Positions 13,324-39,080 of a stretch of DNA of 64,000 nt are shown here, one piece after another. How positions within the stretch are numbered: the stretch's first letter is position 1; every line of letters begins with the position of its first letter. Origin of the DNA: a bacterium (GTDB lineage: Bacteria; Patescibacteriota; Minisyncoccia; Phycocordibacterales; VMGT01); the NCBI GenBank assembly GCA_030697645.1, contig JAUYPI010000006.1, positions 12,017 to 76,016 of the forward strand. Direction: 5' to 3'. The position numbers were made by a program, and so were the translations under genes. Under the pieces are notes generated by a model that saw only the letters and a program-made list of their open reading frames with translations, searched no databases and was not told the DNA's origin.

Positions 13324-13386
13324 TTTTTAGCTTTTAGCGCTAGGTTTTTAGTGCTACTGTGTTAGTCCTCTAAAAGCTAATAGTCT
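13324..13386. repeat. AGCTTTTAG-family (heptamer-word) spacer, short copy
   Basis: tttttagcttttagcgctag ... cctctaaaagctaatag directly upstream of the rplQ ATG. Confidence 0.6.
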
Positions 13387-13740
13387 ATGCGTCACCACAA
13401 CAGAATCAAAAAATTCGGCCGCGTCGCGCGGCAGCGGAGAGCACTGATCTCCTCGCTCGCCTCATCCCTCATTCGTCATGAGAAGATCACGACGACCGAG
13501 GCGAAAGCAAAGGAGCTTCGGCCATTTATTGAGCGCCTCATCACCGTTGCGCGGCAGGGCACACTCGCCGCGAGGCGAACGACCCTTGCGCGACTTGGCG
13601 GAGAGAGTGTCGCTGCGCGTCGGCTCATGAGCTCTGTTGCCTCGCGCTATCTCTCTCGACCCGGGGGCTACACGCGCATCACAAAACTGCGTGCGCGCAC
13701 CAGCGACAGGGCACCGCAGGCGCGCATTGAATTTGTATGA
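13387..13740 (+). CDS. rplQ: Ribosomal protein L17
   Basis: 117 aa. MRHHNRIKKFGR ... LITHEKITTTEAKAKELRPFIERLIT. Confidence 0.9.
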   Translation: MRHHNRIKKFGRVARQRRALISSLASSLIRHEKITTTEAKAKELRPFIERLITVARQGTLAARRTTLARLGGESVAARRLMSSVASRYLSRPGGYTRITKLRARTSDRAPQARIEFV

Positions 13741-14108
13741 CAGCCACTGATCAGACACTCTATACAATCGACGCCCGAGCACAGCGTCTCGGGCGGGTTG
13801 CCGCCGATGCGGCGCGCGTCCTTATGGGCAAACACACGCCCCACTACGAGCGCAATCGGATAAACGGGCAGCGCGTACGCATCGAGCACGCGGCAGCACT
13901 CCAGATTGACGAGCGAAAAAAGAAGCATACAATATATTCGCGCCACTCGGGCTATCCGGGCTCGCTCAAGCGCGTAACGCTCGCCGCGATCGAGACGAAG
14001 CGCGGTCGAGAGCGTGCATACAGCGAGGCGCTCCGTCGGGCAGTCTACGGCATGCTGCCGAAGAACAAGCTGAGGCCGAGGATGATGAAACGGCTTGAAA
14101 TCATATAG
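13737..14108 (+). CDS. rplM: Ribosomal protein L13
   Basis: 123 aa. LGRVAADAARVLMGKH ... YSRHSGYPGSLK. Overlaps the rplQ stop by 4 nt. Confidence 0.85.
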   Translation: MTATDQTLYTIDARAQRLGRVAADAARVLMGKHTPHYERNRINGQRVRIEHAAALQIDERKKKHTIYSRHSGYPGSLKRVTLAAIETKRGRERAYSEALRRAVYGMLPKNKLRPRMMKRLEII

Positions 14109-14172
14109 AGAAAATGATGTAGAGACACGCAGCAAGCAGAACGTCCTCAGCATCAAAACCTAAATGCCGATA

Positions 14173-14284
14173 AAATTTTCAATTATCAATTTTCAATTTT
14201 CAATCAATTTTCAATTTCTCAATTTTTCAAACACAACGCCGACGTCGTCCATTGAAAATTGTAAAATTGAAAATTGAAAATTTA
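14173..14284. repeat. E-family palindromic spacer, copy 6
   Basis: aattttcaat words, core CGACGTCG at 14240-14247, short right arm ending 6 nt before the rpsI ATG. Confidence 0.8.
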
Positions 14285-14290
14285 AACTGT

Positions 14291-14713
14291 ATGCCTTCCT
14301 CAACCACCCCCAAACCCAAGAAATCCGACCGCTACATCGAGGCAGTTGGCCGCCGCAAGACGGCGATTGCGCGCGTGCGGATCTCACCTGCTTCAAAAAC
14401 GAACGTCTTGATCAACGACCGCTCGATCGAATCGTACTTTCCAGTGGCCACCCTTGCGCAGAGTGTCCTCTCGCCGCTTGCGCTCGCGCCGTCGGCGCAT
14501 TTTAGCGTAAGCGTCCATGTTGTCGGCGGGGGCATTCGCGGCCAGGCAGAGGCGGTGCGCCACGGTATCGCGCGCGCGCTCACGCTCTCGAGCGCTGATC
14601 TCCGGACCCCTCTGAAGCGCGCTGGATTTCTCACGCGTGATCCTCGTGCCAAGGAGCGGCGCAAATTCGGGCTCAAAAAAGCGCGCAAGGCACCGCAATG
14701 GAGTAAACGATAG
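14291..14713 (+). CDS. rpsI: Ribosomal protein S9
   Basis: YIEAVGRRKTAIARV ... GGGIRGQAEAVRHGIARAL ... RDPRAKERRKFGLKKARKAPQWSKR. The tracked start at 14252 is inside the repeat, so ATG 14291 is preferred. Confidence 0.9.
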   Translation: MPSSTTPKPKKSDRYIEAVGRRKTAIARVRISPASKTNVLINDRSIESYFPVATLAQSVLSPLALAPSAHFSVSVHVVGGGIRGQAEAVRHGIARALTLSSADLRTPLKRAGFLTRDPRAKERRKFGLKKARKAPQWSKR

Positions 14714-14766
14714 TTTACTCCATTGCGGGCGAAGGGGGTCGGGGAAACTGTAGTTTAGTTCCCTCT

Positions 14767-14887
14767 AAATTTTCAATTATCAATTTTCAATCAATTTTGC
14801 AATGAATCAATTTTCAAACACGACGTCGTCCGTCACTCAGTCATTGAAACGTTGAAAATTCATTGAAAATTGCAAAATTGAAAATTA
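14767..14887. repeat. E-family palindromic spacer, copy 7
   Basis: Same architecture, core cgacgtcg at 14821-14828. Ends 9 nt before the grpE ATG. Confidence 0.85.
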
Positions 14888-14896
14888 GACAATCCT

Positions 14897-15469
14897 ATGT
14901 CCGATACAGATCCAGAAAATGCACGAGACGAAACAATAGATATCATATCGGAAGAGGAAGAGCAGAATTCCTCCGTCCTGATCCAAAAGCTCCGTGGTAA
15001 GTTGAAGCTCTGCGAGGCCGAGCGGCACGAGTACCTCACTGGCTGGCAGCGGGCGAAAGCGGACTTGGTGAATGCACGAAAGGATGAAGAGCGCGAGCGC
15101 GCCACGTTTGTGCGTTTTGCTGCAGAGCGGCTGGTTCGCGACCTCCTGCCGGTGCTCGAGAGCTTTGAGATGGCGTTCTCAAATCCAGGATGGGAGCAGG
15201 CACCACTTGAGTGGCGGCAAGGCATCGAGCACATCCACGCGCAGCTCGTCGCAGTACTTGAGCGCAGCGGCCTTGGGCAAGTACGTCCAGAGATCGGAGA
15301 AAAATTTGACCCTACGCAACACGAATCGGCGGGCGAGACTCCAGTCGAGAGCGCGGAGCAAGATCACGAGATCGTCTCCGTTGTTCGACGCGGCTACCGA
15401 CTGTATGATAAGCTGATACAGCCCGCGAGAGTCATGGTTGGCATATCAGGCGATACGCATGAACATTAA
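14897..15469 (+). CDS. grpE: Nucleotide exchange factor GrpE
   Basis: 190 aa. Coiled-coil N-terminus, then LLPVLESFEMA and a GYRLYDKLIQPARV C-terminal beta domain. Precedes dnaK. Confidence 0.85.
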   Translation: MSDTDPENARDETIDIISEEEEQNSSVLIQKLRGKLKLCEAERHEYLTGWQRAKADLVNARKDEERERATFVRFAAERLVRDLLPVLESFEMAFSNPGWEQAPLEWRQGIEHIHAQLVAVLERSGLGQVRPEIGEKFDPTQHESAGETPVESAEQDHEIVSVVRRGYRLYDKLIQPARVMVGISGDTHEH

Positions 15470-15500
15470 AAGCAGAACGGAACACGCCTCCGAGTCATCT

Positions 15501-15648
15501 AATTTCCAATTTTCAATTTTGCAATTTTCAATCAATTTTCAATTATCCAATTTTCAAACACGACGCCGACGACGTCCGTCATTGAGTCATTGAAACATTG
15601 AAAATTCATTGGAAATTGAAAATTGTAAATTGAAAATTAAGAAATAAT
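15501..15648. repeat. E-family palindromic spacer, copy 8
   Basis: Same architecture with a duplicated core cacgacgccgacgacgtccgtc. Confidence 0.85.
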
Positions 15649-15662
15649 TTTAAAACTAAACT

Positions 15663-17570
15663 ATGAGTAAAATAATCGGCATTGATCTCGGCACGACATT
15701 CTCGGCGGTTGCGGTCGTCGAGGGCGGTGAGCCGCGGATTATTGAGAACGCAGAGGGCGCGCGCACGACGCCTTCGATTGCCGCGCTCTCGAAGACTGGC
15801 GAGCGACTCGTCGGGCTCATTGCTAAGCGTCAGGCAGTAACGAACCCGAAAAATACGATCTACGGCATCAAGCGCTTTATCGGCCACCGCTTCGACGAGC
15901 AGGAAGTACAGAAAGACAAAGGCTCGGTGCCCTTCGAGGTACGACGCTCCGAGAGCGGCGGTGTTGAGGTGAAGCAGGGGGAGAAGTGGTACCGGCCGGA
16001 GGAAGTGTCCGCGATGATCCTCCAGAAGTTGAAGGCCGACGCCGAGGCCAAGCTCGGCGGCCCGATCACCGAGGCTATAATCACGGTGCCCGCATACTTC
16101 AACGACTCTCAGCGCAAAGCGACGCAGGATGCGGGGCGGATCGCGGGGCTCGATGTCAAGCGCATCATCAACGAGCCGACCGCGGCCGCGCTCGCCTATG
16201 GCTTCAATAAGAAAAAGGAAGAGAAGATTGTCGTGTTCGACTTCGGCGGCGGCACGTTCGACGTCTCGGTGCTCGAGGTCGGCGACGACGTGGTTGAGGT
16301 GAAGTCAACGGATGGCGACGCGCACATGGGCGGCAAGGATATCGACCAGAAGATAATCCACTGGATTGCGGACGAGTACCGCAAACAGAGCGGCATTGAT
16401 GTCCGCGCCGATCCTCTGGCGCTCCAGCGACTCGACGAAGCGGCGGAGAAAGTAAAGCACGAGCTCTCCTCGACGACCCAGAGCGAGATCAATATCCCGT
16501 TTATCACTTCGGATAGCTCGGGCCCCAAACACCTTCTTATGAATATGACGCGCGCTACGCTCGAGGAGCTTGCACGGGAGTACATTGACCGCTCGATCGA
16601 GATTGCGAAGCGCGCGATGGATGCCTCGCCGTTTAAGATCAATGAAATTGACGAGGTGATTCTCGTCGGGGGACAGACGCGCATGCCCGCAATCGAGGAA
16701 GCAGTGAAAAAGTTTTTCGGCAAAGAGCCAAACAAATCGATCAATCCTGACGAAGTCGTTGCGCTCGGCGCAGCGATCCAGGGCGGGATTCTCCGCGGCG
16801 AGGTGAAAGACGTGCTCCTCCTTGATGTGATTCCGCTCTCACTCGGTATTGAAACTATGGGAAACATCGCGACAAAATTGATCGAGCGCAACACGACCAT
16901 TCCGACCTCCCGGACACAGGTGTTTTCGACCGCTGCTGATAACCAGACCAGCGTCGAAATCCACGTCGTGCAGGGCGAGCGGGCCATGGCCGCGGACAAC
17001 AAATCGCTCGGCCGCTTCATTCTCGACGGGCTCCCTCCGGCTCCCCGCGGCATGCCCCAGGTTGAGGTAACATTCGACGTTGACGCAAACGGCATCCTCA
17101 ACGTGACCGCGCGCGACAAGGCGAGTGGAAAGGCGCAATCAATCCGCATCGAGGCTCGCTCAGGGCTCACCGAGGCCGATATCGAGCGGATGAGAAAAGA
17201 CGCAGAGAGCCATGGCGAGGATGATCGACGCAAGCGGGAGGAGGCAGAGGCGCGCAACAGCGCCGAGCAGCTGATTTACACCGCGGAGAAGGCGCTCCGC
17301 GACGCGGGGGACAAGGTTGACAGCGCGGTGAAAACCGCAGTCGAGGAGAAACTCGCGGCGCTGAAAAAAGCGCGCGATGAAAACAACATCGATGGCATGA
17401 AATCCGCAACCGCAGCGCTCTCGCAAGAAATTTCAAAAATCGGCGAGCAAATGTATAAAGCGCAACAAGAGCAGCAGAAGGGAAGTGAGAGCGACAAGAA
17501 GGACGATGGGGGAGGGGTGAGGGATGCGGAGTTTAAGGAGAAGGGAGACGATACGAGCGACAAGCAGTAA
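15663..17570 (+). CDS. dnaK: Chaperone DnaK (Hsp70)
   Basis: 635 aa. [38 protein letters not shown]. Confidence 0.95.
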
Positions 17571-17597
17571 GCAGCATGCGGCAAGCACACGGTTCCC

Positions 17598-17710
17598 AGC
17601 TTTTAGCTGTTAGCTTATAGCTTTTAGCACGGACGGCGGAGCCTCTCAAAAGCTAACAGCGTTATAAGTTTTCCAGCCCTTTGGGCGCAAAGGGCTATGG
17701 CTAAAAGCTC
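17598..17710. repeat. AGCTTTTAG-family palindromic spacer
   Basis: cagcttttagctgttagcttatagcttttagc ... aaaagctaacagc ... ggctaaaagct. Ends 2 nt before the dnaJ ATG. Confidence 0.75.
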
Positions 17711-17712
17711 GT

Positions 17713-18798
17713 ATGAAAGATTACTATACAATCCTTGGAGTTCCGCGGGGTTCGTCCAAAGACGACATCAAAAAGGCGTTTCGGAAGCTCGCGCATAAGT
17801 ATCACCCGGACAAGACGGGCGGGGACGCGACGAGGTTCAAAGAGGCGAGCGAGGCGTATGCAGTGCTCTCCGACGACAAGAAACGCGGCGAGTATGACGT
17901 CTACGGCCGCGTGTTCTCCGAAGGAGGGCCGAGCGGCCCGCAGGGCGCGCCGAGCGGTTTTGACTTTAACGACTTTGCGCGTGCCTTTAGCGGCTTCAAG
18001 GAGTTTGAGGACATTGACCTCGGCGACCTCTTCGGCGATATTTTTGGTTTCTCTGGCGGCGCGCGCCGAGGAGCGCCGCGCGGCCGCGACATCTCGATAG
18101 ACGTCGAGATCTCATTTGCGGACTCGGTTTTCGGCGTCGAGCGCAAGCTGCTCCTCACGAAAACGTCGAGCTGCAGTGAATGCTCTGGCTCCGGCGCCAA
18201 GCGAGGGAGCGAAACCATCTCCTGCAGCGCCTGCAACGGCAAGGGAAAGATACATGAGACGCGCCGATCATTCTTCGGTACGTTCACGTCGGTGAGCAGC
18301 TGCAGCGCCTGCCACGGCAGCGGGACAATGCCAAAAGATAAATGCAGCGCCTGCAGAGGGGCGGGCGTACGCCGCGCGCAGGAGGAGATCGCGATTACCA
18401 TCCCGCCGGGGATCGAGAGCGGCGAGATGATCCGACTCACCGGCGCAGGGGAGGCAGTGCCGGGAGGCGTCGCGGGCGACCTCTATGTGAAAATTCATGT
18501 ACAAAAGCATCCGCGCTTCCGCAAAGAAGGCGCGAACCTTGAAACGGACCTCAGCGTGAAGCTCACCGACGCGCTCCTCGGTGCGAGCTATACACTCCCG
18601 ACACTCGAGGGCGACATCGAAGTCACGATTCCCGAAGGCATTACGCACGGGGAGATTCTCCGCGTGCGCGGCAAGGGCATTCCTCTTGACCGCTCTCGCC
18701 GCGGCGACCTCCTCATCACGATCAAGATCCAATTCCCCACGCGTCTTTCAAAAAAATCCCGCGCAGCGCTTGAGGAGTTGCGTAGAGAGGGCATCTAA
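17713..18798 (+). CDS. dnaJ: Co-chaperone DnaJ
   Basis: 361 aa. J domain with HPD (KYHPDK), G/F region, four CxxCxGxG zinc-finger repeats. Confidence 0.9.
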   Translation: MKDYYTILGVPRGSSKDDIKKAFRKLAHKYHPDKTGGDATRFKEASEAYAVLSDDKKRGEYDVYGRVFSEGGPSGPQGAPSGFDFNDFARAFSGFKEFEDIDLGDLFGDIFGFSGGARRGAPRGRDISIDVEISFADSVFGVERKLLLTKTSSCSECSGSGAKRGSETISCSACNGKGKIHETRRSFFGTFTSVSSCSACHGSGTMPKDKCSACRGAGVRRAQEEIAITIPPGIESGEMIRLTGAGEAVPGGVAGDLYVKIHVQKHPRFRKEGANLETDLSVKLTDALLGASYTLPTLEGDIEVTIPEGITHGEILRVRGKGIPLDRSRRGDLLITIKIQFPTRLSKKSRAALEELRREGI

Positions 18799-18915
18799 GC
18801 AAAAAAGAAGACCCCACAGCGCAAAGTGCGAAAACCCCCGTATTCAAGTATGCTCGCTTGAATACGGGGTTTGCTCTGTCCCAGCTCCACCTACATAGGC
18901 TTGATCTCGATAACG

Positions 18916-20202
18916 TTAGAGGCTACATGCTACAAAGAACTGTTCAATCGATGTAGACCAACGGGCTGTATGCATGCAGTAAAATTGCGGACCGTCAGGA
19001 ACATGTTTGTCAACGATCGTGCGTAACTCGGCGCCCGTAATAGATGCCGCGGCGAGTTGCCCCTCGGCGGTGAGCAGTTTTCCTAGATGCCGTAGAGTGC
19101 CGTAGGTAGACCCGCGATCTCGACGGAAATCCTCGATGGAACAGCCCGTATGCGCACGAAGCGTCTCCGGCGTGATCGAGCTCGACTCAAGGAGATTAGC
19201 TAGGCAGTCGAGGAGGCCCGGCACATGCAAAAAGAATGATGGGAAGCGGTACGCTGCCGCTCCCCGATTGATGCGTATCAGCGTTCCTCGATCGCCGAAC
19301 AGAGCACTCGACGGTTCAAAGCGTGGTAATCGCTCGCCCTCCGTCGTGCAGAGCGTGAGCGTTGTTTCAATGAATTCCGGCCGTAAGATACCAGTCAGAA
19401 ATTTAAACTTCCGTTTTTGTCCGCGGAAGAACACCTTGTGGAAGAGCGCGAAGCAGTGCGCCATGCAGCGATGTTTATACGGAAGCCGCGTATTCGTTTC
19501 GACAGCGCAGAAAGGGGGGATGCCGCAGAGCCGCGACATGGTGACAATGGTCCGCATGAATTCTGGATCGCCGTGGTACAGCTCGTCGCGAAACAATGAA
19601 GCGAGCTCGCCACTCACATGGCACACTTCGGTAAAGTCTGATGTCCCATACGGCTCCCCACGCCCCGGAATAAACCGCATACTCACCCATTCCTCTATCA
19701 AAGGCGGACTGTGTTCAATACCGTGCCCCGCGGGTTCCATCGCATGCGGCTCGCGAATTTCACCGTAGAGCGGGTACTCGACATTGAGCAGGTACACGAG
19801 GCTTTTGGTATCGAACTCGTCGAGCGGCGGGCAATCGCCGTAGCGATTATACGAGCTGCGGCAGGCGAGTGTCAGACGGAGTGCGGATTCGTTGGTCCAG
19901 CATGGATCGTAGAGTGGCTTCGCCACATATATGGTTAACGTCGTGTGCCCGAACCGCTCGCATGCACACGGCGTCAGTGATTCTCTACATTCACGGCCAA
20001 GAGCGATGACTTGTTCCAGTGGGGGCTGCGGTACTATGGAAACGTATAGCTCACTCTGCTGCGGCAAAAGGTAGGGAACTGTGCGCATGTGGTGTCCTTT
20101 CTTTTGATTATGGGTAGCATACAAGAACGGCCCGTGGCCATCTTTTTTGGAACTCGTGTCTGGTCTGAGATACAGTCTAGAGTGCCGAGATTCATTTGTC
20201 AA
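18916..20202 (-). CDS. Hypothetical protein (faint LuxI/FeeM-type N-acyltransferase-like pattern)
   Basis: 428-aa ORF; the start could be the internal MRTVPYLL at 20088. DEFDTKSLVYLL, VSMRFIPG and TMSRLCG loosely recall autoinducer/N-acyl-amino-acid synthase motifs. Very tentative. Confidence 0.45.
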   Translation of the reverse strand: MTNESRHSRLYLRPDTSSKKDGHGPFLYATHNQKKGHHMRTVPYLLPQQSELYVSIVPQPPLEQVIALGRECRESLTPCACERFGHTTLTIYVAKPLYDPCWTNESALRLTLACRSSYNRYGDCPPLDEFDTKSLVYLLNVEYPLYGEIREPHAMEPAGHGIEHSPPLIEEWVSMRFIPGRGEPYGTSDFTEVCHVSGELASLFRDELYHGDPEFMRTIVTMSRLCGIPPFCAVETNTRLPYKHRCMAHCFALFHKVFFRGQKRKFKFLTGILRPEFIETTLTLCTTEGERLPRFEPSSALFGDRGTLIRINRGAAAYRFPSFFLHVPGLLDCLANLLESSSITPETLRAHTGCSIEDFRRDRGSTYGTLRHLGKLLTAEGQLAAASITGAELRTIVDKHVPDGPQFYCMHTARWSTSIEQFFVACSL

Positions 20203-20248
20203 AAATATGCACTGGCACCTTTCGCTTTCGTGAGTTTATGGCTATCAT

Positions 20249-21553: not shown

Positions 21554-21556
21554 CCG

Positions 21557-26254: not shown

Positions 26255-26351
26255 GAACCGTGCATAGAGGCGGGCATTGTCTCTCGTCTCTTTTTTGCGT
26301 CGTCTGTTTTCGTCTCTAAAAGCTAAAAGCTATCAGCTAACAGCTTGTACT

Positions 26352-28487
<2,136 letters not shown>

Positions 28488-28823: not shown

Positions 28824-28896
28824 CCACACTCATCGTCCCGCTTAGTAAGCATTGCGCTGAACGGCGGGGCGTTTTTTTTGTATATACGTACAGATA

Positions 28897-28937
28897 CGAA
28901 ACTACTTTGAGAAGTTGGACTTCTCAAAGTAGTTTCG
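28897..28937. repeat. Perfect 19-bp hairpin with TGG triloop
   Basis: CGAAACTACTTTGAGAAGT tgg ACTTCTCAAAGTAGTTTCG. Verified base by base. Confidence 0.85.
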
Positions 28938-28990
28938 TCGGTGTTTTTATGTGCGTGGTTTTTGAGATATGGGTTAAAAAACAGCGCGGC

Positions 28991-29497: not shown

Positions 29498-29776
29498 CGC
29501 CACCTCCTCGTTTATGAACAGGGTGAGATAATCGAAATTCTATTTCTTTCTTACCACAGGTGTCTTACAGGAGTCAACCGCGCCTCCCGTAATTTTTTCC
29601 CTATTCCTAATTTTTGGAGTTCAGATTTCCTAAACTCTGTCCGACATCCGATGTCGGAGTCGGACAGGAGATCCTATCATTCCCTCCCCGTGGCCTTTTG
29701 GCGTGGAGTGCACACGGGTACCTTTCTCTGGCGTATACCGAATGCATCAAGGCGATGGATTTAGTATAGTATACGT

Positions 29777-29986
29777 ATGGAAACAAACGACGTCATACAG
29801 AAACTCGAGGCTCACGAAAAAAAGCTTGACGCGATATTTCGGTCTACGGAAAAAACGCGCAGGTATATATTCTGGACTATGATTGGCAGCATCGTTGTAT
29901 TCGTACTGCCCCTCATCGGTCTCTTATTCGTGGTGCCTTATTTTTTGAGCGTGTATTCCTCAATGTATCAGGGATTGGGGCTCTGA
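29777..29986 (+). CDS. Small membrane protein (hypothetical)
   Basis: 69 aa. Amphipathic N-terminus, then a long hydrophobic segment IFWTMIGSIVVFVLPLIGLLFVVPYFL. Confidence 0.4.
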   Translation: METNDVIQKLEAHEKKLDAIFRSTEKTRRYIFWTMIGSIVVFVLPLIGLLFVVPYFLSVYSSMYQGLGL

Positions 29987-29993
29987 TACATTC

Positions 29994-31121
29994 CTATCGT
30001 GGAGAAGATGCAGGATTCGTCTGGCGGAGCGGGATCGTGAATCGTATGGTAGTGCCTTCGTTTTCAGCGCTGGTGAAATCCATCTTACCGCCGTGGTTTT
30101 CGACGATATTTTTCGCCATGTAGAGGCCGAGGCCGGTGCCGGCGGTAGCATAGAGTTTAGCATTTCTGGCGCGGAAGAATTGATCGAAGACCTGGCGCTG
30201 TTGCTCCTTCGGGATGCCAATGCCGGTGTCTGCGACGCTGACCTCGATGTCTCGCGCCTTCTTTCGTACGGTGAGCGCGACCGCACCTCCTTCAGGCGTA
30301 TATTTGATCGCGTTGTTGATAAGGTTGTCAATAACGATGCCGACTTTTTCTGCGTCGATCGAAATTGAGGGCAGCACGGAGGGCAGAGAGATTGAGAAAG
30401 CGACTCGCTTACGCTTGGCAACAGGACGCGTTGCGTTAACGACCTTTTCAATAATCGGCAGGAAATCCTGTTCCACCGGCACGAAGCCAAAGCGTCCTTC
30501 CTCGATGCGCGCAGTGTCGAGGAGGTCGCTAATGAGCTCTGTCGCAGTGACTGTCACCCCGAGGCTCTCATTGAGTATTTTGAGCTGTTCCTCACTGAGC
30601 GGCCCGAGTTCGCCGTCAACAAGCGACTGGAGCGACCAACGCACGCCTGTGAGAGGTGTCCGGAGCTGGTGCGCCGCGACTGAGACGAATTCTGATTTGA
30701 CGAGATCAAGGCCTTCGAGGCGCGTGTTCGCGCTCGAGAGCTCGATATCACGGCGCACGAGCACCTTGCCGACCTCGCTGAATTCACCCGCGACGCGGGA
30801 ATACTCATCGTTCGCCCGGGAGGACTCTCGGTCTTTGCGCACGAGAAGCCGTGCGCTATCGGTGTTCTCGTGAAGCCATACTTCGAGCTCTTGGTTGTGT
30901 TTGCTGAGCGTGCGCACGGCGCTGAACGCTGCCGTCGCCGCCCCCGCTGCAGTGAGGGCGGTGAGAGCGCCCCAGAGCACGCGGTTAAGCAGGCCTGCCG
31001 TTAAAATCGCGGCCGCAGTCACGAGCGGCGAGAGAAGGAGCGCGAGGGTAAGGCGGAGGCGGGGGGAGAGAGTAAAGATATTGCCGGCATGTTTGGGAAA
31101 GTGCATGGGAGTAAAATGCAA
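29994..31121 (-). CDS. Sensor histidine kinase
   Basis: 375 aa. Two N-terminal TM helices, coiled coil, H-box VSVAAHQLRTPLTGV, HATPase_c (NLINNAIKYTP, DTGIGI, GTGLGLYMAK). Confidence 0.85.
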   Translation of the reverse strand: MHFTPMHFPKHAGNIFTLSPRLRLTLALLLSPLVTAAAILTAGLLNRVLWGALTALTAAGAATAAFSAVRTLSKHNQELEVWLHENTDSARLLVRKDRESSRANDEYSRVAGEFSEVGKVLVRRDIELSSANTRLEGLDLVKSEFVSVAAHQLRTPLTGVRWSLQSLVDGELGPLSEEQLKILNESLGVTVTATELISDLLDTARIEEGRFGFVPVEQDFLPIIEKVVNATRPVAKRKRVAFSISLPSVLPSISIDAEKVGIVIDNLINNAIKYTPEGGAVALTVRKKARDIEVSVADTGIGIPKEQQRQVFDQFFRARNAKLYATAGTGLGLYMAKNIVENHGGKMDFTSAENEGTTIRFTIPLRQTNPASSPR

Positions 31122-31387
31122 AGTTCAAAGCGCAAAACGCAAAACAACAACGCAAAATAACACAGTAAAATTCGAATTTCCAACCAACAAGCTCCAAATC
31201 AAATAAATTCCAAGCTCCAACCAACAAGCTCCAAACAAATTTCAAATTCCAATGCATCAAATCTCAAACACGCACGTCGTGTTTGGAAATTGGATTTTGA
31301 ATATTGGGATTTGTTTGGAAATTGTTTTTTGGAAATTGGAGATTCGTTTTGCTTTTTGCACTGTTGTTTTTCGCTTTACACTTTGCG
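31122..31387. repeat. ~260-bp imperfect palindrome (CCAAATTTC/GCAAAAC word family) filling the HK-FIST spacer
   Basis: Centre aaacacgCACGTCGTGttt near 31268-31286. Outer arms gcaaagttcaaagcgcaaaacgc... and ...gcgaaaaacaacagtgc-type complement (cgctttacactttgc). Confidence 0.7.
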
Positions 31388-32590
31388 TTACTTCGTCCCA
31401 ATCCCCACAATCGTAATCGTCCCATTATGGAACAGCGTCGGCTCGGGTGCAGTGCCGCCGCCGATCGCGTGTATCGCGGGCGCGTACTCGCCGTAGCTTG
31501 CAATGCCGAGAAGCGGCGTATCACGCCCCACGATATCAAGAATAGCGTTGGTTTCGTCTTTGATCATAGCACCGAGGAGTTTTTTGCGTGAGATGCTCTC
31601 AAAGACGAGGAGGAGTTTCAGCGAGACGTGTGAGCGCTTCAAGCGCTCCATCAGGCCCTCGGTCGCGGTGCATGCAGCAGTCAGCGCTTTTTCTTTGCTC
31701 CCGATCATGAGACGAACCCGAGCGCCCTCGGGTATTGCCGCGGCGAGAGTGAGCGAACCGTCTTCTTCTGCCCTGAGGGGATTTCGGATGAGGTACTCAT
31801 CGCTCACGCCAGTGCGGACGCCAAGTGGGTAGCCGAGTGCCGAATGTGCGAGTGGCTCGGCGCGAAGTTTTGATAGATCTTCCCCGAAATAGTCTTCGTA
31901 GATAGACGCAGCTCTCCTTCCCTCGAGTTCAAAAACGCGCGTACCTTCTGCGCGCGTTACTCTCTGCGGTATGCCGACCGGTATCCAGCCGCCTTCGACG
32001 CCGATGCCGAGCACGCATTCGCCTGAGATCGCACAACCGACAAGAGCGTCGTCTCCAACGAGAGCGTCCCGGTACTGGAACGTCCGCTCGAACGTGAGCT
32101 CATCACTTGCCGCCACTCCGGCAGCCGGTATATTCGCACCGAGCACACTCTGCAAGCCCCCGAGCACCTCGGCAGCGCCGCCTCGGAGCATATTAGCGAA
32201 GAGGAGGAGTCCGACGAGCTCCCCGGTGGCGAGTTCCCTGATTTCTTGCCCTACGAGGGCGCCTGCGGCGCGGGCGCCGTTTTTCATGAGCCCCATACCG
32301 GAGGCGAATGTGACTGAGTCGCTCTCGAGCGCGACGACCGCTACCGTCTGGTCAACGGGGCCTTCATTCGTGAGGATCCCCGTGGCTGAACAGCCGACAA
32401 GGGGAGCGTTGCCGCTTGCGTCCCGCACGCCGCGGACGAGCGCCTCCTGGTCGTAGAGTGTAGAAGCGAATACCAAAAGCTGCGTCGGCCGCTCAACCCC
32501 CGCCCTCTCAAGGGCGCTCTGAGCTGCCGCAAAACCCGCTTGGTGCGCGTCGTGTTCTTTGGCGGTGCCGACTCCGACGATGAGAGACAT
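31388..32590 (-). CDS. FIST-domain signalling protein
   Basis: 400 aa. Overall pattern and its position between a receiver and a kinase fit FIST_N/FIST_C sensors. Assigned from memory. Confidence 0.5.
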   Translation of the reverse strand: MSLIVGVGTAKEHDAHQAGFAAAQSALERAGVERPTQLLVFASTLYDQEALVRGVRDASGNAPLVGCSATGILTNEGPVDQTVAVVALESDSVTFASGMGLMKNGARAAGALVGQEIRELATGELVGLLLFANMLRGGAAEVLGGLQSVLGANIPAAGVAASDELTFERTFQYRDALVGDDALVGCAISGECVLGIGVEGGWIPVGIPQRVTRAEGTRVFELEGRRAASIYEDYFGEDLSKLRAEPLAHSALGYPLGVRTGVSDEYLIRNPLRAEEDGSLTLAAAIPEGARVRLMIGSKEKALTAACTATEGLMERLKRSHVSLKLLLVFESISRKKLLGAMIKDETNAILDIVGRDTPLLGIASYGEYAPAIHAIGGGTAPEPTLFHNGTITIVGIGTK

Positions 32591-32605
32591 GGGGGATGAT
32601 GGCGC

Positions 32606-32781
32606 AACCGCTCACGCCTTAAAATTTTGCGCTCGAGCTTCGGCGTTTAGAAATAACAGTCGCCTCATTGACGAAAAACGCATAACTCGCCTGCGGGCTC
32701 AAACAGATGCGTTTTTCTATTCGGCTCCTTTATTTCCAAAACGCCTCTCGCTATGCGCAAAATTTTAAGGCGTGAGCGGTT
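32606..32781. repeat. Long palindrome with perfect 27-bp terminal arms
   Basis: AACCGCTCACGCCTTAAAATTTTGCGC (32606-32632) and its exact reverse complement (32755-32781). Inner arms GAAAAACGCAT/ATGCGTTTTTC. Confidence 0.85.
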
Positions 32782-32801
32782 CCGGCGTGAGAGTGGTTTG
32801 A

Positions 32802-33272
32802 CTACGTAATTCCGAGCAACTGCTCTATCTTCGCCACGATCTCGTTCGGCGATGTGTTCGCTTTGACAGCGTAGTCCGCAGCCCCGATCTGCCTTGCTTT
32901 CTCAAGGTCGTCTCGTTGACCGAGATTGGAGAGAATAAGCACGGGGATATGTTTCATCTTTTCATTCGCCTTGATCTCGCGCAGGAGCACGAAGCCGTCC
33001 TCGCCGGGAAGGATGAGATCAAGGCAAACGAGATTGATCGGCTTTTCGGCAAGGAGTGCGCGACCCTCTTCGACCGTCTCCGCCCGAAAGACGGTAAATT
33101 TCTGATCGTGGAGCTTTCGCTCAAGCATGCCGCCGAGAAACGGGTCGTCTTCAACAACGAGGAGCACAGCGCGAGTCTCCTCAGGTGAGATTTCTCGTGG
33201 AGCATCGCCTGATCCTGCCACACTGTCCGCACCGGGACCGGTGGCGCTCTCTTGAATGCTGTCATCATTCAT
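32802..33272 (-). CDS. Response-regulator receiver-domain protein
   Basis: REC pattern VLLVVEDDPFL ... CLDLILPGEDG ... ADYAVKA. ATG at 33272 (MNDDS) is preferred over the tracked 33398. Confidence 0.8.
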   Translation of the reverse strand: MNDDSIQESATGPGADSVAGSGDAPREISPEETRAVLLVVEDDPFLGGMLERKLHDQKFTVFRAETVEEGRALLAEKPINLVCLDLILPGEDGFVLLREIKANEKMKHIPVLILSNLGQRDDLEKARQIGAADYAVKANTSPNEIVAKIEQLLGIT

Positions 33273-33550
33273 AGAAGTATTGAGAGTATAACAAAGAGAG
33301 CGCACGGCGCACAAGGACACCCCTGTGTATAACGTGCGCTTGACAGGGGATGCAGGCCGCGTTACATTGTGATATAAGGTCAAAATGTTACATGTCAAAT
33401 GTCATGAACTCGGATTTCGAGCCCCGAATATTCGGATTTGGATAAGTCTTTTTTATCAGTTAATTTTTTACGCCGAGATCGCTTCGCACTGTCGTCCGCG
33501 CTCATCGAGGCGTCGGTAATTTCCGAAGCGATTCTCGCGTACCACATAGT

Positions 33551-34741
<1,191 letters not shown>

Positions 34742-34782
34742 CAATGGTAACCACCCACCAATAGTTCTGATTCGATTGGTCA

Positions 34783-34910
34783 AATTTTCAATTTTACAAT
34801 TTCCAATCAATTTTCAATGTGTCAATGACTCAATGACGGGCGAAGTCGTGTTTGAAAATTGGGTCATTGAAAATTCACTGAAAATTGAAAATTGTAAATT
34901 GAAAATTTCG
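34783..34910. repeat. E-family palindromic spacer, copy 9 (inverted orientation)
   Basis: caatgacgggcgaagtcgtgtttgaaaattggg. Additionally flanked by CCACCCACC / GGTGGGTGG. Confidence 0.8.
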
Positions 34911-34949
34911 AATGGGAGAGGTGGGTGGGCTTTTGCTTGATTTTTTGCC

Positions 34950-35318
34950 ATGGTTACTAAATCAACGGCTCCGCGTAAGCGCGCCGCGGCAGCGCGCAAA
35001 AAGGAGGAGGTTTCGCACAAGCTCCGCATTCGCATCCGCGCCTACGAGCACAAGATTCTTGACTCGTCCGTAAAGCAGGTCATGGACACCGCGCTTCGCT
35101 ACGATGCGCGGGTCGAGGGTCCGACGCCGCTTCCGGTTGAGATCAAAAAGTACACAGTCAACCGCTCATCGTTCGTGCACAAGAACGCGCGCGAGCAGTT
35201 CGAGATGCGCACGCACAAGCGCCTCATTGACATCCTCGACCCGGCGCCGAAGTTGATCGAAGCGCTTACGAATCTCACGTTGCCGTCGGGAGTGAATGTG
35301 GACGTGAAGATGATGTAA
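34950..35318 (+). CDS. rpsJ: Ribosomal protein S10 (with basic N-terminal extension)
   Basis: LRIRIRAYEHKILDSSVKQVMDTA ... HKNAREQFEMRTHKRLIDI. Confidence 0.9.
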   Translation: MVTKSTAPRKRAAAARKKEEVSHKLRIRIRAYEHKILDSSVKQVMDTALRYDARVEGPTPLPVEIKKYTVNRSSFVHKNAREQFEMRTHKRLIDILDPAPKLIEALTNLTLPSGVNVDVKMM

Positions 35319-35323
35319 AGGTT

Positions 35324-35436
35324 TGAGCTTTTAGCTTATAGCTGTTAGCTTTTAGGGGTTGTCGCGGCGTGCGCGAAGCACGCAATCGTTAGTCTGTCGT
35401 GCCTCTAAAAGCTATAAGCTAACAGCTAAGAGCTTT
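35324..35436. repeat. AGCTTTTAG-family palindromic spacer
   Basis: Left arm gagcttttagcttatagctgttagcttttag. Right arm ctctaaaagctataagctaacagctaagagct, ending 5 nt before the rplC ATG. Built from 7-nt AGCTnnT words. Confidence 0.8.
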
Positions 35437-35441
35437 TTTGT

Positions 35442-36059
35442 ATGAAATTCATTCTTGCCACCAAACAGCACATGACCCAGCTCTTCGACGAGGACGGGCG
35501 TGCATACCCGGCGACTCTACTTACCGCTGGGCCGGTTACCGTGACGCAGACGAAGAGCAAAGAGCGCGATGGCTACCGTGCGGTGCAGGTGGGTTTCGGG
35601 GCTCAGAAAGCGCAGCGGCTCTCGGCGCAGCAGCGCGGGCACCTCAAGGGGCTCGGAGCGTTTCGGACGCTCCGCGAATTTCGCTTAGCCGAGAGTGAGG
35701 CCGCGCTTGAGCGCGGCGCGATGCTCGACGTCTCGCAGTTTGCTCCGGGAGAGCGCGTGCGGGTCTCCGCTACATCGAAAGGCAAGGGCTTTCAGGGAGT
35801 GGTGAAGCGCCACGGATTCAAGGGCGGGCCGAGGAGCCACGGCCAGAAGCACTCGGAGCGCGAGCCGGGCTCGATCGGCGGCGGGGGGCGAGCCGGCGGC
35901 CGCGTCGTAAAAGGGATGCGCATGGCGGGCCGCATGGGCGGCGATCGCGTCACGGTGCGCGGTCTTCGGGTGCTCGCGGTGGACCCCGAAGCGCACGAGC
36001 TTCTCCTCCGCGGCGCGGTCCCCGGGAGGCGCGGAACGCTTGTTGAGGTGAGGGGATAG
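35442..36059 (+). CDS. rplC: Ribosomal protein L3
   Basis: 205 aa. KGKGFQGVVKRHGFKGGPRSHGQ. Confidence 0.9.
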   Translation: MKFILATKQHMTQLFDEDGRAYPATLLTAGPVTVTQTKSKERDGYRAVQVGFGAQKAQRLSAQQRGHLKGLGAFRTLREFRLAESEAALERGAMLDVSQFAPGERVRVSATSKGKGFQGVVKRHGFKGGPRSHGQKHSEREPGSIGGGGRAGGRVVKGMRMAGRMGGDRVTVRGLRVLAVDPEAHELLLRGAVPGRRGTLVEVRG

Positions 36060-36575
36060 AGGACTCTGCATGGATTTTTTCAAAATAAGGAGAGAAAATA
36101 TACCGCCGAGCACTATAGCATAATTGCTACATGGCTCGAGCGGATAGCGGTATTGCTTCTTGCTTCGCTTGTAGTCCAAAAAATTGTTTCCGGCAGCTCG
36201 TTTGTTGACACGAGCGTGGCAGGTGGGGTTTTATTGTCAGGGGTTGTGTACTACGCGGCGCTTTTATTTTTACAGAACTCGTAGTATAGTACTCGTATGG
36301 TCTCGCAACTTCTCATTTATATTGGGGGGGCGCTCATTGCGGTGATGTTTATTATTTTGGCGTATCCAATGGAGGGAAAACATGGGCATGGACGCAGTTG
36401 ATAAGTGTATACGAGAATGATATAAAGATTCATCCCCCGCCCGGAGGCGGGGGATCGTGTGAGGGGTGTGAGTAAGAGGCGTTGATGTCAGTTTGCCGCT
36501 TTTTTGGAAATCGAGCTTATCTCTGTCCAATAAAAATGACCATCACCCCTGGTGTAACGGCAAGTGGCGTAAGCA

Positions 36576-36719
36576 TTATATGCTGAAGAAAACACCTCGT
36601 GGGCAGTCGTACACAGTACCGTCTTTCAGTGTGATAGATGTTGGCTCCTTTCAGTCGGCGGTACATCCGACAACAAGTAACGCGAGCAATGCCGTAGCGA
36701 TACAAAACACTCTTTTCAT
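36576..36719 (-). pseudogene. Small lipoprotein (YgdI/YgdR-like) interrupted by an in-frame TGA
   Basis: MKRVFCIATALLALLVVGC|TAD, then TGA (36651-36653), then in frame KEPTSITLKDGTVYDCPRGVFFSI and TAA. Lipobox LVVGC. GGAAGGG lies upstream. Confidence 0.35.
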
Positions 36720-36809
36720 CGGTTTCCCTTCCATGTGATGCGAGTTATGTAGGCCAGTCTGGCTAGACCGACGTTTCGGGTTTCTACACGGAGAATTATA
36801 CAAAAATTT

Positions 36810-37475
36810 ATGCATGTCAAGTCTTATAGCCAAACAGGTGCAGAAGCGGGGACCATTGATCTTCCCGATGCCGTTTTTGCTCTGCCGTGGAACGCGGACC
36901 TCGTGCACCAGGTCGTGGTCGGCATGCAGGCGAATGCGCGCACGAATGTCGCGCACACCAAGGGTCGTGGCGAGGTGCGCGGCGGCGGGAAAAAACCCTG
37001 GAAGCAGAAGGGCACCGGCCGCGCGCGGCATGGCTCGATCCGCTCACCGCTCTGGAGGGGCGGTGGGGTGACGTTTGGTCCGACGAACGAGAAATCATAC
37101 ACACAGAAGATCAACCAGAAGATGCGCGTGAAAGCGCTGTTCACCGCGCTCTCGCAGAAGCTACGCGACGGCGAGATGCTTTTTGTGGACTCGCTCACGT
37201 TTCCCGCTCCGAAGACCGCCGACGCGAAGCGCACCGTGACGGCGCTTGCAGGTATTGAAGGGTTCGGGCGGCTCGCGACGAAGACCCGCAACACCGCCCT
37301 CCTTGCGCTCGCCCGTCGCGACGAGGCGGTCGAAAAAAGTTTCCGCAACTTCGGCAACATCAGTACGGTTGAAGCCCGCAACTTGAATCCGGTAGAGGCG
37401 TTGAAATATAAATATATAATCTTTACCGAACCGAGTGAGGTGTGTAAGATACTTGCCGAGCGACAGCGGCAGTAA
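36810..37475 (+). CDS. rplD: Ribosomal protein L4
   Basis: 221 aa. HTKGRGEVRGGGKKPWKQKGTGRARHGSIRSPLWRGGG. Confidence 0.9.
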   Translation: MHVKSYSQTGAEAGTIDLPDAVFALPWNADLVHQVVVGMQANARTNVAHTKGRGEVRGGGKKPWKQKGTGRARHGSIRSPLWRGGGVTFGPTNEKSYTQKINQKMRVKALFTALSQKLRDGEMLFVDSLTFPAPKTADAKRTVTALAGIEGFGRLATKTRNTALLALARRDEAVEKSFRNFGNISTVEARNLNPVEALKYKYIIFTEPSEVCKILAERQRQ

Positions 37476-37480
37476 GAGAA

Positions 37481-37613
37481 TAATTTCCAATTTTCAATTT
37501 TGCAATTTTCAATCAATTTTCAATTATCTAATTTTCAAACACGAACGTCGCCGTGATTGAGTCATTGAAACATTGAAAATTTATTGAAAATTGAGCATTG
37601 AAAATTGAAAATT
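37481..37613. repeat. E-family palindromic spacer, copy 10
   Basis: Same architecture with core cacgaacgtcgcc. Ends 6 nt before the rplW ATG. Confidence 0.85.
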
Positions 37614-37619
37614 TCACCT

Positions 37620-38027
37620 ATGGCTTTCTTCCGCAAAAAAATACAGACATCCGAGATACCCGCGACCGCAGCGGCGCGTGACGATGCGCCACAGCACGCC
37701 CCCGGTGTTTCGGAGCACAAGCGCGCTAGTGCGCCTCGGCTCGCCTCACGTCGGTCTCTCTCCGACGTCCTCATCCGCCCCCGCATTACCGAAAAAGGCA
37801 CGATTGTCTCCGCGCACCGAGCGTACGCCTTCAACGTCGCGCCGTGGGCGAACAAGTACGAGATTGCCGCGGCGGTCCGCGCGACGTATAAGGTGACGCC
37901 AGAGAAGGTCACGGTTGCTCGCATTCCCGCAAAGGCGCGTTTCGTGCGTGGCAAATGGGGTACGAAAGTCGGAGGGAAGAAAGCGTATATTTTCCTCAAA
38001 CAGGGAGAGAAGATAGAGTTTGTCTAA
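37620..38027 (+). CDS. rplW: Ribosomal protein L23 (with N-terminal extension)
   Basis: LIRPRITEKGT ... AFNVAPWANKYEIAAAVRATYKV ... KKAYIFLKQGEKI. ATG 37620 is preferred because the tracked start lies in the repeat. Confidence 0.85.
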   Translation: MAFFRKKIQTSEIPATAAARDDAPQHAPGVSEHKRASAPRLASRRSLSDVLIRPRITEKGTIVSAHRAYAFNVAPWANKYEIAAAVRATYKVTPEKVTVARIPAKARFVRGKWGTKVGGKKAYIFLKQGEKIEFV

Positions 38028-38029
38028 TT

Positions 38030-38106
38030 TTACATTTGACATTTGACGTTCGATCCTTGCAGGGACATCCGTCGTGGTCAAATGTTAATTGTCAAAGGTC
38101 AAATGT
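38030..38106. repeat. ACATTTGAC-word palindromic spacer
   Basis: tacatttgacatttgac ... gtcaaatgttaattgtcaaaggtcaaatgt between rplW and rplB. Confidence 0.7.
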
Positions 38107-38157
38107 TGGTATTGGTTGAACTTCGGCATTAATTTTTGATTTTTGCATTAAGCATCT

Positions 38158-39003
38158 ATGAAAAGTTATCGTCCCACCACCCCATCCCGCCGCGCCATGT
38201 CGGTCGTGTCATATAAAAATACGCTGACCACCGCGCGGCCGCTGAAGCCGCTCGTCCGCGGCGGCAAGCGCCACGTTGGCCGAAATAAGGATGGCCGCAT
38301 CACCGTGCGCCACAAAGGCGGCGGCCATAAGCGGCGTTTTCGCGCGGTGGATTTTAGCTACGATAAGCATGACATCCCGGCGCGGATCGAGCACCTTGAA
38401 TACGACCCGAACCGCTCCGGCTTCATTGCGCGCCTCCTCTATGCGGACGGCGAGCGGCGCTATATCCTCGCGCCGCAGCGCGCAGCAGTGGGGGATAGCG
38501 TGCTTATCTCCGAGAGCGCGTCGGTTGTGACAGGAAACAGACTGCCGCTCGGAAAAATTCCTGTCGGCGCGTTTGTCCACGCGATCGAGCTCAAGCCCGG
38601 GGGCGGCGCGCGCCTCGCGCGGTCTGCCGGAAACTACGCGGAAGTGGTTGCGCAGGAGGGCGGCTACACGCACCTCAAGATGCCTTCGACTGAAATACGA
38701 AAGGTGCTCGGGGGCGCATGGGCTTCAATTGGTGAAGTCTCGAATTCCGAGCACCGTCAGAGAGTGTTCGGCAAGGCGGGCCGTTCGCGATGGCTCGGGA
38801 TTAGGCCCACCGTGCGCGGCAGTGCGATGAACCCAGTTGACCATCCGCACGGCGGCGGCGAGGGCCGCTCCGGCCGCGGCCGACGCCGTGCGGTCTCCGC
38901 GTGGGGAAAGCCCACCGGCAAGGGCCACAAGACCCGCCGTGCGAAGAAATACTCAAACGCCCACATCATCTCGCGTCGTCGTGTTGGCAAGAAACGTGGA
39001 TGA
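38158..39003 (+). CDS. rplB: Ribosomal protein L2
   Basis: 281 aa. GRNKDGRITVRHKGGGHKR ... VRGSAMNPVDHPHGGGEGR. Confidence 0.95.
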   Translation: MKSYRPTTPSRRAMSVVSYKNTLTTARPLKPLVRGGKRHVGRNKDGRITVRHKGGGHKRRFRAVDFSYDKHDIPARIEHLEYDPNRSGFIARLLYADGERRYILAPQRAAVGDSVLISESASVVTGNRLPLGKIPVGAFVHAIELKPGGGARLARSAGNYAEVVAQEGGYTHLKMPSTEIRKVLGGAWASIGEVSNSEHRQRVFGKAGRSRWLGIRPTVRGSAMNPVDHPHGGGEGRSGRGRRRAVSAWGKPTGKGHKTRRAKKYSNAHIISRRRVGKKRG

Positions 39004-39011
39004 CGTGTTTA

Positions 39012-39080
39012 GAAAGTGGAAGGTGGAAAGTGGAGAGTAGACAGCGGCAACCAAAAACGAAAACCCACTTTCTACTCTCC
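39012..39080. repeat. GGAAAGTGG-word repeat plus 10-bp hairpin
   Basis: gaaagtggaaggtggaaagtgg, then GGAGAGTAGA (39031-39040) pairing with TCTACTCTCC (39071-39080). Confidence 0.6.

Follow-up and report, generated by a model that had tools for sequence, protein, structure and literature searches.

The window that we analysed is a 64,000-nt stretch of the genome of an uncultured, Kaiserbacteria-like member of the Paceibacteria, within the Patescibacteria, and its subject here is a set of intergenic palindromes whose arms are tandem arrays of 7-nt words. Unless another scope is given, the counts below refer to the whole 64-kb stretch. Gene content was assigned by combining open reading frames (ORFs), precomputed gene calls and Pfam. 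Two blocks of housekeeping genes lie on the + strand: the first (9.2-18.8 kb) comprises IF1, L36, S13, S11, S4, rpoA, an orphan ORF, L17, L13, S9, grpE, dnaK and dnaJ, and the second (33.5-39.5 kb) EF-Tu, S10, L3, L4, L23, L2 and a NUDIX gene; EF-G starts at 26352. Canonical promoters were found for rpoA (11693-11720, a 12/12 match that is also present in the relatives L083 and L084) and for EF-Tu (33340-33368). A strong canonical terminator lies 3' of dnaJ (18836-18869), and a further one at 28896-28938. The Shine-Dalgarno (SD) motif was absent from the ribosomal-protein, elongation-factor and chaperone genes among the ~37 gene starts in the window, and many starts read ..CTATG; several genes at 44-61 kb carry GGAG or GGAGG 6-10 nt 5' of the start. 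Six loci flagged by a first-pass annotation, designated A1 to A4, B and C, fall within these transcription units.

These six loci represent three word families: AGCTnnT (four loci), ACATTTG and GAAAGTG (one each; Table 1). The sequences are as the first-pass annotation described them, except that the ACATTTG word is 7 nt long and not 9. They are built like the dominant AATTTTC family of the window, from tandem heptamers, a centre and reverse-complement heptamers. Tandem Repeats Finder reported period-7 arrays at 17598-17628, 26316-26345, 35322-35355, 35405-35434, 38027-38047 and 39012-39038; with copy numbers of 3-4.9 at five of the six loci, they have the head-to-tail 7-nt unit of heptamer simple sequence repeats (SSRs). 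Measured against dinucleotide shuffles, the AGCT pattern AGCTnnTAGCTnnTAGC had 12 matches (0.05 expected), the ACATTTG pattern ACATTTGACATTTGAC seven at ≤3 mismatches (0.34 expected) and the GAAAGTG pattern GAAAGTGGARRGT 11 at ≤2 mismatches (4.1 expected). All six loci had been said to end a few nucleotides before the next ATG; this is true of five (gaps of 3-11 nt), and B ends 51 nt short of the L2 start at 38158.

Fold stability was expressed as a z-score relative to shuffled sequences, and four of the six loci folded more stably than the shuffles. The most stable was A4, whose arms are 82% complementary (z -6.9); A2, in which a GC hairpin at ~17669-17700 breaks the right arm, had a z of -3.55, C of -2.7 and B of -2.6. 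A1, with only ~1.5 words per arm, folded weakly (z -1.5); it is present in two independent assemblies. A3 had been called a half copy, and it indeed consists of a single arm that has neither a partner nor a hairpin (z +0.2); a terminator-like hairpin (26266-26291) lies just 5' of it. At gathering thresholds, Rfam 15 gave no matches, and the sub-threshold ones were only to eukaryotic miRNA-precursor models, that is, to generic long hairpins. The orphan ORF that adjoins A1 (12766-13323) encodes 185 aa and has a third-position GC content of 0.33, as against ~0.7 in its neighbours. It begins 4 nt past the rpoA stop, precedes L17 and ends exactly at the start of A1. Considered as a mobilising protein, it was without a match in Pfam, PHROGs and NCBIfam. 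The ORF is absent from L083, where a hairpin element occupies that spacer.

Independent NCBI and Logan contigs carry the elements at 13324, 35324, 38030 and 39012 at 99.8-100% identity; because these contigs reproduce them, the elements are not assembly artefacts. Strain-level variation was considered and rejected: NCBI and Logan contigs agree within the elements, and the differences at the ends of contig L001 are chimeric coding sequence from a related strain.

The periodicity extends well past the flagged loci. A lag scan of the window returned 17 strict period-7 arrays, every one of them intergenic, along with four arrays of period 4, one of period 6 and none of period 5 or of periods 8-14. 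A reverse-complement partner array lies within 200 nt of 14 of the 17, and at least five unrelated word families occur within the 64 kb. We then counted occupancy in spacers of ≥40 nt, using a strict automatic criterion: a period-7 array was present in 12 of the 17 spacers adjoining translation and chaperone genes vs. one of the 27 other spacers (Fisher p = 3e-6). By alignment or by eye, 15-16 of those 17 housekeeping spacers are occupied. The elements are concentrated in two operons, rpoA-to-dnaJ and tuf-to-L2; the region from 40 to 64 kb has long spacers yet is without such arrays. The first-pass annotation had staked its argument on palindromes not being lacking from most intergenic regions, and here the answer is divided: nearly all spacers in the two housekeeping operons have them, and 26 of the 27 other spacers do not.

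The flagged elements are minority dialects, and the AATTTTC/TTGAAAA family fills the other spacers. This main family has 10 copies of 125 nt (E1 to E10), which occur in both orientations around a conserved, non-periodic 20-nt centre. The composite element V has, by alignment, outer arms of the GCAAAGC/GCAAAAC family found in the relatives L083, L170 and L174, and its loop holds a nested CCAA/TTGG element resembling the main family. Within this inner element is a tandem duplication (31168-31240; 37 nt, 2.0 copies, 89% matches). The spacer before IF1 (9104-9203) contains a hairpin with CTTTCAC and GTGAAAG words in its arms, akin to the GAAAGTG dialect in opposite polarity; a hairpin 3' of L2 in L170 resembles it.

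Table 1. Heptamer-armed elements of the window.
Feature	Position	Strand	Description and location
A1	13324..13386	+	Short degenerate AGCT-word palindrome; between orphan ORF (12766-13323) and L17 (ATG 13387)
A2	17598..17710	+	AGCT-word palindrome; between dnaK and dnaJ (ATG 17713); left arm 17598-17628
A3	26316..26348	+	A-rich arm alone, (AAAAGCT)-type words x4; 6 nt before EF-G ATG (26352)
A4	35324..35436	+	AGCT-word palindrome; between S10 and L3 (ATG 35442); arms 35326-35358, 35402-35434
B	38030..38106	+	ACATTTG-word palindrome; 3' of L23 stop; arms 38032-38054, 38077-38106
C	39012..39080	+	GAAAGTG-word array 39012-39038 and two-word complementary arm 39063-39080; between L2 and NUDIX (ATG 39091)
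Partial second ACATTTG copy	33387..33402	-	Divergent spacer 5' of EF-Tu; 2 mismatches; period 7 at 33383-33404
V	31107..31387	-	Composite element; between FIST and HisKA genes
E1	7584..7681	+	Main AATTTTC family
E2	9639..9770	+	Main family; L36-S13
E3	10174..10307	+	Main family; S13-S11
E4	10755..10887	+	Main family; S11-S4; centre in opposite orientation
E5	11549..11673	+	Main family; after S4, 5' of rpoA promoter (11693-11720)
E6	14174..14286	+	Main family; L13-S9
E7	14768..14886	+	Main family; S9-grpE
E8	15501..15638	+	Main family; grpE-dnaK
E9	34783..34907	+	Main family; EF-Tu-S10; centre in opposite orientation
E10	37482..37613	+	Main family; L4-L23

An architecture that recurs in several vocabularies raises a question: are its instances copies of one another? 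Within a dialect, the sequences suggest that they are. A2 is A4 in inverse orientation, one arm being identical at 29 of 30 positions with its variant words included, and a non-periodic junction, CTCTAAAAGCTA, is common to all four AGCT copies, A1 among them. The outer arms of V are homologous to L083 elements that lie in the S9-grpE and grpE-dnaK spacers. Short-read contigs of the same organism (L002, L087, L089 and L086) start or end inside elements, at 35328, 11630, 14200, 37510 and 37585, as expected of multi-copy repeats; one Logan contig breaks inside A4. The elements have the terminal inverted repeats, the length (50-500 bp) and the non-coding character of miniature inverted-repeat transposable elements, or MITEs; internal sequence is common to the copies of the main family, though not to those of the AGCT family. 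An apparent rule of arm order in the AGCT and GAAAGTG elements, in which words are reverse-complemented singly and kept in direct order, was discarded: the AGCT case is a single inherited feature, because A2 is A4 inverted, and the remaining cases are too few. Judged from these sequence relationships, the heptamer-armed palindromic repeats are probably mobile.

Comparison with relatives showed which features of the spacers persist. L3, RpoA and L2 proteins were matched on contigs of the metagenome-assembled genome (MAG) GCA_034376905.1, an assembly broken up at these repeats, and of two Logan assemblies. In the genome collection, the closest species-level relatives were Patescibacteria with L3 identities of 61-67%. 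Scans of genome and metagenome contigs found none closer than 67%, and the close relatives came from protein searches and contig look-ups: L083 and L084 (RpoA identity 88% and 79%) and L170, L174 and L175 (L2 identity 93%, 89% and 74%). Gene order is kept in all five. The architecture also recurs in the corresponding spacers, spelled with different words, and in L083, L084, L170 and L174 the same slots are occupied. The L23-L2 spacer, ACATTTG in the window, has CAAAAGT in L170, AATTTTC of the main family in L174 and TACGAAA in L175. The slot 3' of L2, GAAAGTG in the window, has a CACTTTCAC..GTGAACGTGG hairpin in L170, GCAAAGC in L174 and no word array in L175 (fold z -0.44, not significant). 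In the S10-L3 slot, AGCT in the window, L170 has TAGGT words with GC hairpins and L175 a sequence that is not word-built; the L174 contig does not cover it. Families also turn up at other places: the AGCT family at L14-L24 in L175, TAGGY words in L084, L170 and L175, the main-family centre in L174, and, at Tu-S10 in L175, a minimal one-word hairpin (GAAGGTGG..CCACTTTC). A family of opposite polarity, with its T-rich arm beside the ATG, occupies the same slots in L083 and L170.

Occupancy is not universal. Slots without a significant hairpin occur in L175 (74% identity; z +0.84, -0.44 and -0.69), and in L085 (67% RpoA identity) the operons are compact, their spacers measuring 2-33 nt and containing no elements. 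Taken together, the compared sequences show that a pool of families is common to the clade, with slots conserved and occupants turning over. In one slot, ~45 nt right after the S9 stop (TTTACTCCATTGYGGGCGAAGGGGGTCGGGGAAACTGTAGTTT) are conserved between the window (14714-14760) and L083 (2634-2680), and the repeat element that follows differs.

The period is prevalent in more distant genomes as well. At 83 other loci around L3, period 7 was the commonest long period (77 arrays vs. 14 of period 6 and two of period 8). Over all loci, 64 of 120 period-7 arrays had a reverse-complement partner within 200 nt, compared with 9 and 17 in controls, and ~71-75 distinct canonical heptamers were collected across 160-odd loci from other genomes. 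The first-pass observation that one architecture recurs in unrelated words thus stands on three counts: the families of the window, the other words in orthologous spacers of relatives, and the words and partnered arrays elsewhere. UBA2135 (L003), also of the Patescibacteria, has textbook palindromes that run from the stop codon through to the start codon. AGCT-word palindromes of like layout were found in several Patescibacteria and in one Chitinophagaceae MAG. In this last genome (L073, Bacteroidota), AGCTnTT ... AAnAGCT palindromes ending AAATAAAATG lie in a ribosomal-protein operon at 15680-15830 and 16150-16300, with the dialect and layout of the window. AGCT is also the most recurrent mixed self-complementary tetramer among the words.

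How do these elements compare with known repeats? The literature that we searched contained no description of such elements in Patescibacteria. Among long simple repeats in bacteria, heptamers were identified as those in greatest excess, with polymerase slippage as the proposed cause, in a 2007 report as it is cited in PMC4692102 and PMC4679880. Cyanobacterial heptamers of Calothrix and Nostoc share with ours a 7-nt unit in ~3-8 head-to-tail copies and a strong intergenic bias, and their function is unknown; in Nostoc they also occur within operons, e.g. in the pecE-pecF spacer. However, those genomes have one or a few dominant words, whereas at least five unrelated ones are found here in 64 kb, and the present arrays are paired as the arms of a palindrome around a centre. 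Xanthomonas genomes have 70-75 convergent GGGAATC array pairs each, with the same flanking genes in related species, variable sequence and no known function (Rehm et al. 2015, PMC4692102). Those pairs, which are transcribed, likewise bring opposite-strand heptamer arrays close together in a possible stem-loop or cruciform, and their length and sequence vary between species. They differ in that only one word is used, G-rich and potentially quadruplex-forming, and in adjoining genes of many functional classes; ours use many words with A/T runs (AGCTTTT, ACATTTG, GAAAGTG), have no G3+ tracts and are concentrated in ribosomal-protein and chaperone operons. In Beggiatoaceae, TAACTGA heptamers stand directly 5' of start codons, and few canonical ribosome binding sites occur there (MacGregor 2015, PMC4679880); these repeats are also known from some Cyanobacteria and Bacteroidetes and from ribosomal-protein operons (PMC4679880). 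The half copy at 26316 has the same appearance, as does a comparable array in L032: heptamers within a few nucleotides of starts. TAACTGA arrays, though, are direct repeats of one word that are almost never inverted, unlike the mostly partnered arrays of the window.

Other likenesses concern behaviour. Correia, ERIC and RUP elements, like REPINs (PMC3116915), are intergenic palindromic repeats of the type of repetitive extragenic palindromic (REP) sequences and MITEs. REP/REPIN and MITE elements are short, non-coding, multi-copy palindromes that are lineage-specific, occur in both orientations, nest or cluster, and lie co-transcribed in operon spacers, as ours appear to; they are not known to contain heptamer sub-repeats. 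A REP unit is a short (20-40 nt), GC-rich imperfect palindrome, two of which in inverted arrangement make up a REPIN; the arms here are instead heptamer arrays of 20-50 nt with A/T runs. In contrast to REPINs and MITEs, no RAYT or other transposase was found in the window or in L170 and no consistent target-site duplication in the window, and the AGCT copies have centres unlike those of MITE-type elements in being unrelated. In the 5' untranslated region of Haemophilus influenzae hmw, one arm of a long hairpin is a transcribed (ATCTTTC)n array; the hairpin is cut by RNase III, sets expression and is required for changes in repeat number (Rapun-Araiz et al. 2025, PMC12721329). There, too, a heptamer array is a hairpin arm 5' of a start codon, and in our case folding is predicted to be significant at four loci and transcription is implied by position between promoter and terminator. 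The other hmw arm is, however, a G-rich region rather than inverted heptamers, and hmw is one phase-variable virulence locus, whereas here several families are spread over housekeeping operons. In short, the composition of the present elements resembles that of heptamer SSRs, and their behaviour that of REPINs or MITEs.

We give about even odds (a probability of roughly 0.5) to the following reading: the six loci represent three or more families of dispersed, copying, heptamer-armed DNA palindromes (60-130 nt, imperfect), which are co-transcribed as long hairpins between cistrons and could plausibly be cut by RNase III. The elements would be copied between spacers via transposition or gene conversion. 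Drawn from a clade-wide pool of word families (AGCT, TAGGY, CAAAAGT, GCAAAGC, AATTTTC, TACGAAA and GAAAGTG among them), they fill a fixed set of spacers in long housekeeping operons. Between relatives, a spacer changes its occupant, partly through a new element entering the loop of an old one. The 7-nt period would most simply reflect slipped-strand expansion of a heptanucleotide. Flanked as they are by a canonical promoter and a canonical terminator, the elements are presumably co-transcribed; in the polycistronic mRNA they would form long imperfect stems (25-45 bp), from past one stop to a point that is mostly 3-11 nt short of the following start. Stems of this kind are generic substrates of the double-strand RNase III, and the likely consequence would be intercistronic processing or stability hairpins. 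The anatomy, the periodicity, the family structure, the filling of the slots and their turnover are observed in the sequences; how the elements are copied, their origin by slippage, their transcription and cleavage by RNase III are inferred. The elements may be tolerated because their usual polarity, with a T-rich 5' arm and an A-rich 3' arm, makes no terminator.

This reading bears on the argument of the first-pass annotation that the structure is selected rather than spread by one selfish element. That argument was half right: the design, not the sequence, recurs, and the evidence favours several copying families. The dialects act as dispersed families, the same families are found at non-orthologous spacers in relatives, and one element is nested in the loop of another. 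Several results nevertheless weigh against copying palindromes. The AGCT copies have unrelated centres, contrary to what a simple element moving by cut-and-paste or copy-and-paste would produce. Neither the window nor 27 kb of L170 showed a transposase or another mobilising gene. There was no consistent target-site duplication of ≥3 bp around the 10 aligned copies of the main family, nor one at 17598 or 35324; at such A/T-rich ends, duplications of 1-2 bp cannot be judged. The two available assemblies are identical in the elements, with no word-number polymorphism seen. Finally, a purely neutral repeat does not predict restriction to housekeeping operons or slots that stay occupied across relatives, and these features hint at selection or targeted insertion.

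Might the hairpins, then, be selected as RNA? Under this alternative, each spacer of the SD-less operons would require a long hairpin, whatever its sequence, with the stem closing right in front of the start codon, and heptamer slippage would only build and tune it: a terminating ribosome would melt the stem base, release the start region and so couple the cistrons, or the stem would substitute for the SD helix or be an obligatory processing site. Slot occupancy that is conserved while sequence is not speaks for such a need, as do housekeeping genes without SD motifs next to some other window genes that have them, 3' arms that mostly stop 3-11 nt before the ATG, the TAACTGA precedent upstream of starts in Beggiatoaceae (PMC4679880) and the functional hmw hairpin (PMC12721329). 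A T-rich 5' and A-rich 3' polarity also prevails (44 vs. 13 arrays, 16 vs. 2 loci). However, a palindrome has one and the same polarity whichever strand is read, so this bias is not tied to gene direction; it could be explained by a simple filter that keeps terminator-like A...T polarity out of operons. The L083/L170 family of opposite polarity in the same slots counts against RNA selection as well; it also weakens the idea that the A-rich arm is a translation enhancer. Further, the element at 38030 is 51 nt from its ATG, the one at 26316 has no hairpin, some L175 slots have no significant fold, and L085 does without such spacers. In the main-family alignment, only one of 27 pairs was compensatory, with a positive covariation term (+2.25). 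When stems were folded with wobble pairing disallowed, their single and double mismatches on the sense strand came to 14 for G.U and 26 for A.C, i.e. there was no G.U excess. RNA-level selection on the elements was therefore not supported by these tests, nor was the first-pass proposal that the structure itself is selected, and the results point to palindromy maintained at the DNA level, not to shown RNA selection. We consider selected RNA structure doubtful. A hybrid, in which the SD-less housekeeping spacers of this Paceibacteria clade are functional slots that need an arbitrary-sequence long hairpin closing ~8 nt before the start, as a structural device for translational coupling, for presenting the start site or for obligatory processing by RNase III, while heptamer slippage and copying between slots create, resize and replace the hairpins, strikes us as improbable.

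The strict period would also suit arrays of protein-binding sites, phased at one protein per 7 nt, with a cold-shock protein or S1 on the RNA or a DNA binder of direct and inverted heptads. The omega repressor binds heptad arrays, and ToxR has been reported at TTTTGAT repeats of the cholera toxin promoter. CspB reportedly binds heptamer repeats, each heptamer taking up one protein, and prefers T-rich sequence (reviewed in PMC4679880). Runs of A3 or T3 are modestly enriched in the words beyond composition (38/75 vs. 27 +/- 3.3), and in the AGCT copies arm sequence is conserved, mismatched words included, while centres are free. But ~71-75 unrelated words, at least five of them in 64 kb, would demand many proteins, or one without specificity; close relatives have different words in the same slot, and no candidate binder adjoins the elements. 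We thus hold this explanation to be quite improbable. Two other ideas on word design failed: words around a self-complementary tetramer, as mini-hairpins of 4 + 3 nt, were no commoner than in shuffles (30/71 vs. 29.0 +/- 3.5), and neither were three-frame stop-codon arrays (59 vs. 57.6 +/- 2.8). We see equally slim prospects for an independent local origin, in which a heptamer slips locally, template switching copies the array as its inverted partner, and nothing moves between spacers. The very large word variety would follow from it, dialects B and C are single-copy in the window, and the L175 hairpin GAAGGTGG..CCACTTTC has the look of a seed for the GAAAGTG dialect. It is at odds with the ordered variant-word series that AGCT copies share in inverse orientation, with their non-periodic junction, with the 20-nt non-periodic centre common to the 10 main-family copies and L174, and with the V arms shared with L083 elements at other loci. 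Least credible, to the point of being nearly dismissed, is the notion that the arrays supply -35/-10 hexamers for each gene or that the hairpins end transcripts. Main-family words do give a weak TTGAAA-17-GAAAAT on both strands, and 21 promoter-like sites vs. 6.6 expected were counted at 7-19 kb. Yet none of the six dialect elements has a promoter-like match (TTGACA/TATAAT-like, sigma-70 type, 16-18 nt apart), an intrinsic terminator (GC-rich stem and T-run) was matched at none of the six loci, the stems have no T-run after them, and the canonical TTGACA-N16/17-TATAAT promoters and GC-stem terminators elsewhere in the window look quite different.

The heptamer-armed palindromes are of interest in several respects. 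The same operon slots in genomes of 74-93% identity, with different words and one design, provide a compact natural series for heptamer repeats, which lack an accepted function; in such a series, comparative and transcript data can separate copying, slippage and a possible RNA function. Patescibacteria genomes are tiny and usually called streamlined, and here they hold ~2 kb of repeat hairpins in the most conserved operons. These repeats fragment short-read assemblies at ribosomal-protein markers that are used in phylogeny and binning.

Other observations concern neighbouring regions. A search for tRNA and tmRNA genes in the window found none. Within the L3-L4 spacer (36060-36809), which is 750 nt long, there are small unannotated ORFs on each strand as well as a strong GC hairpin at 36432-36455; small ORFs also lie between L3 and L4 in L170. 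Across the clade, the NUDIX gene lies 3' of L2 within the S10 operon (region 39091-40261 of the window, 11595-13579 of L170 and 1118-1951 of L174). It is followed by S19-L22 in L170 and L174; in the window, the operon ends there, and a 727-nt spacer leads to a peptidoglycan-binding protein. Between the FIST and response-regulator genes is an inverted repeat (32603-32632/32755-32784) with 30-nt arms, 97% complementary and 122 nt apart, that is not word-built. A palindrome at 56256-56297, with 24-nt arms that are 96% complementary, spans the start codon (56271) of pyruvate phosphate dikinase.

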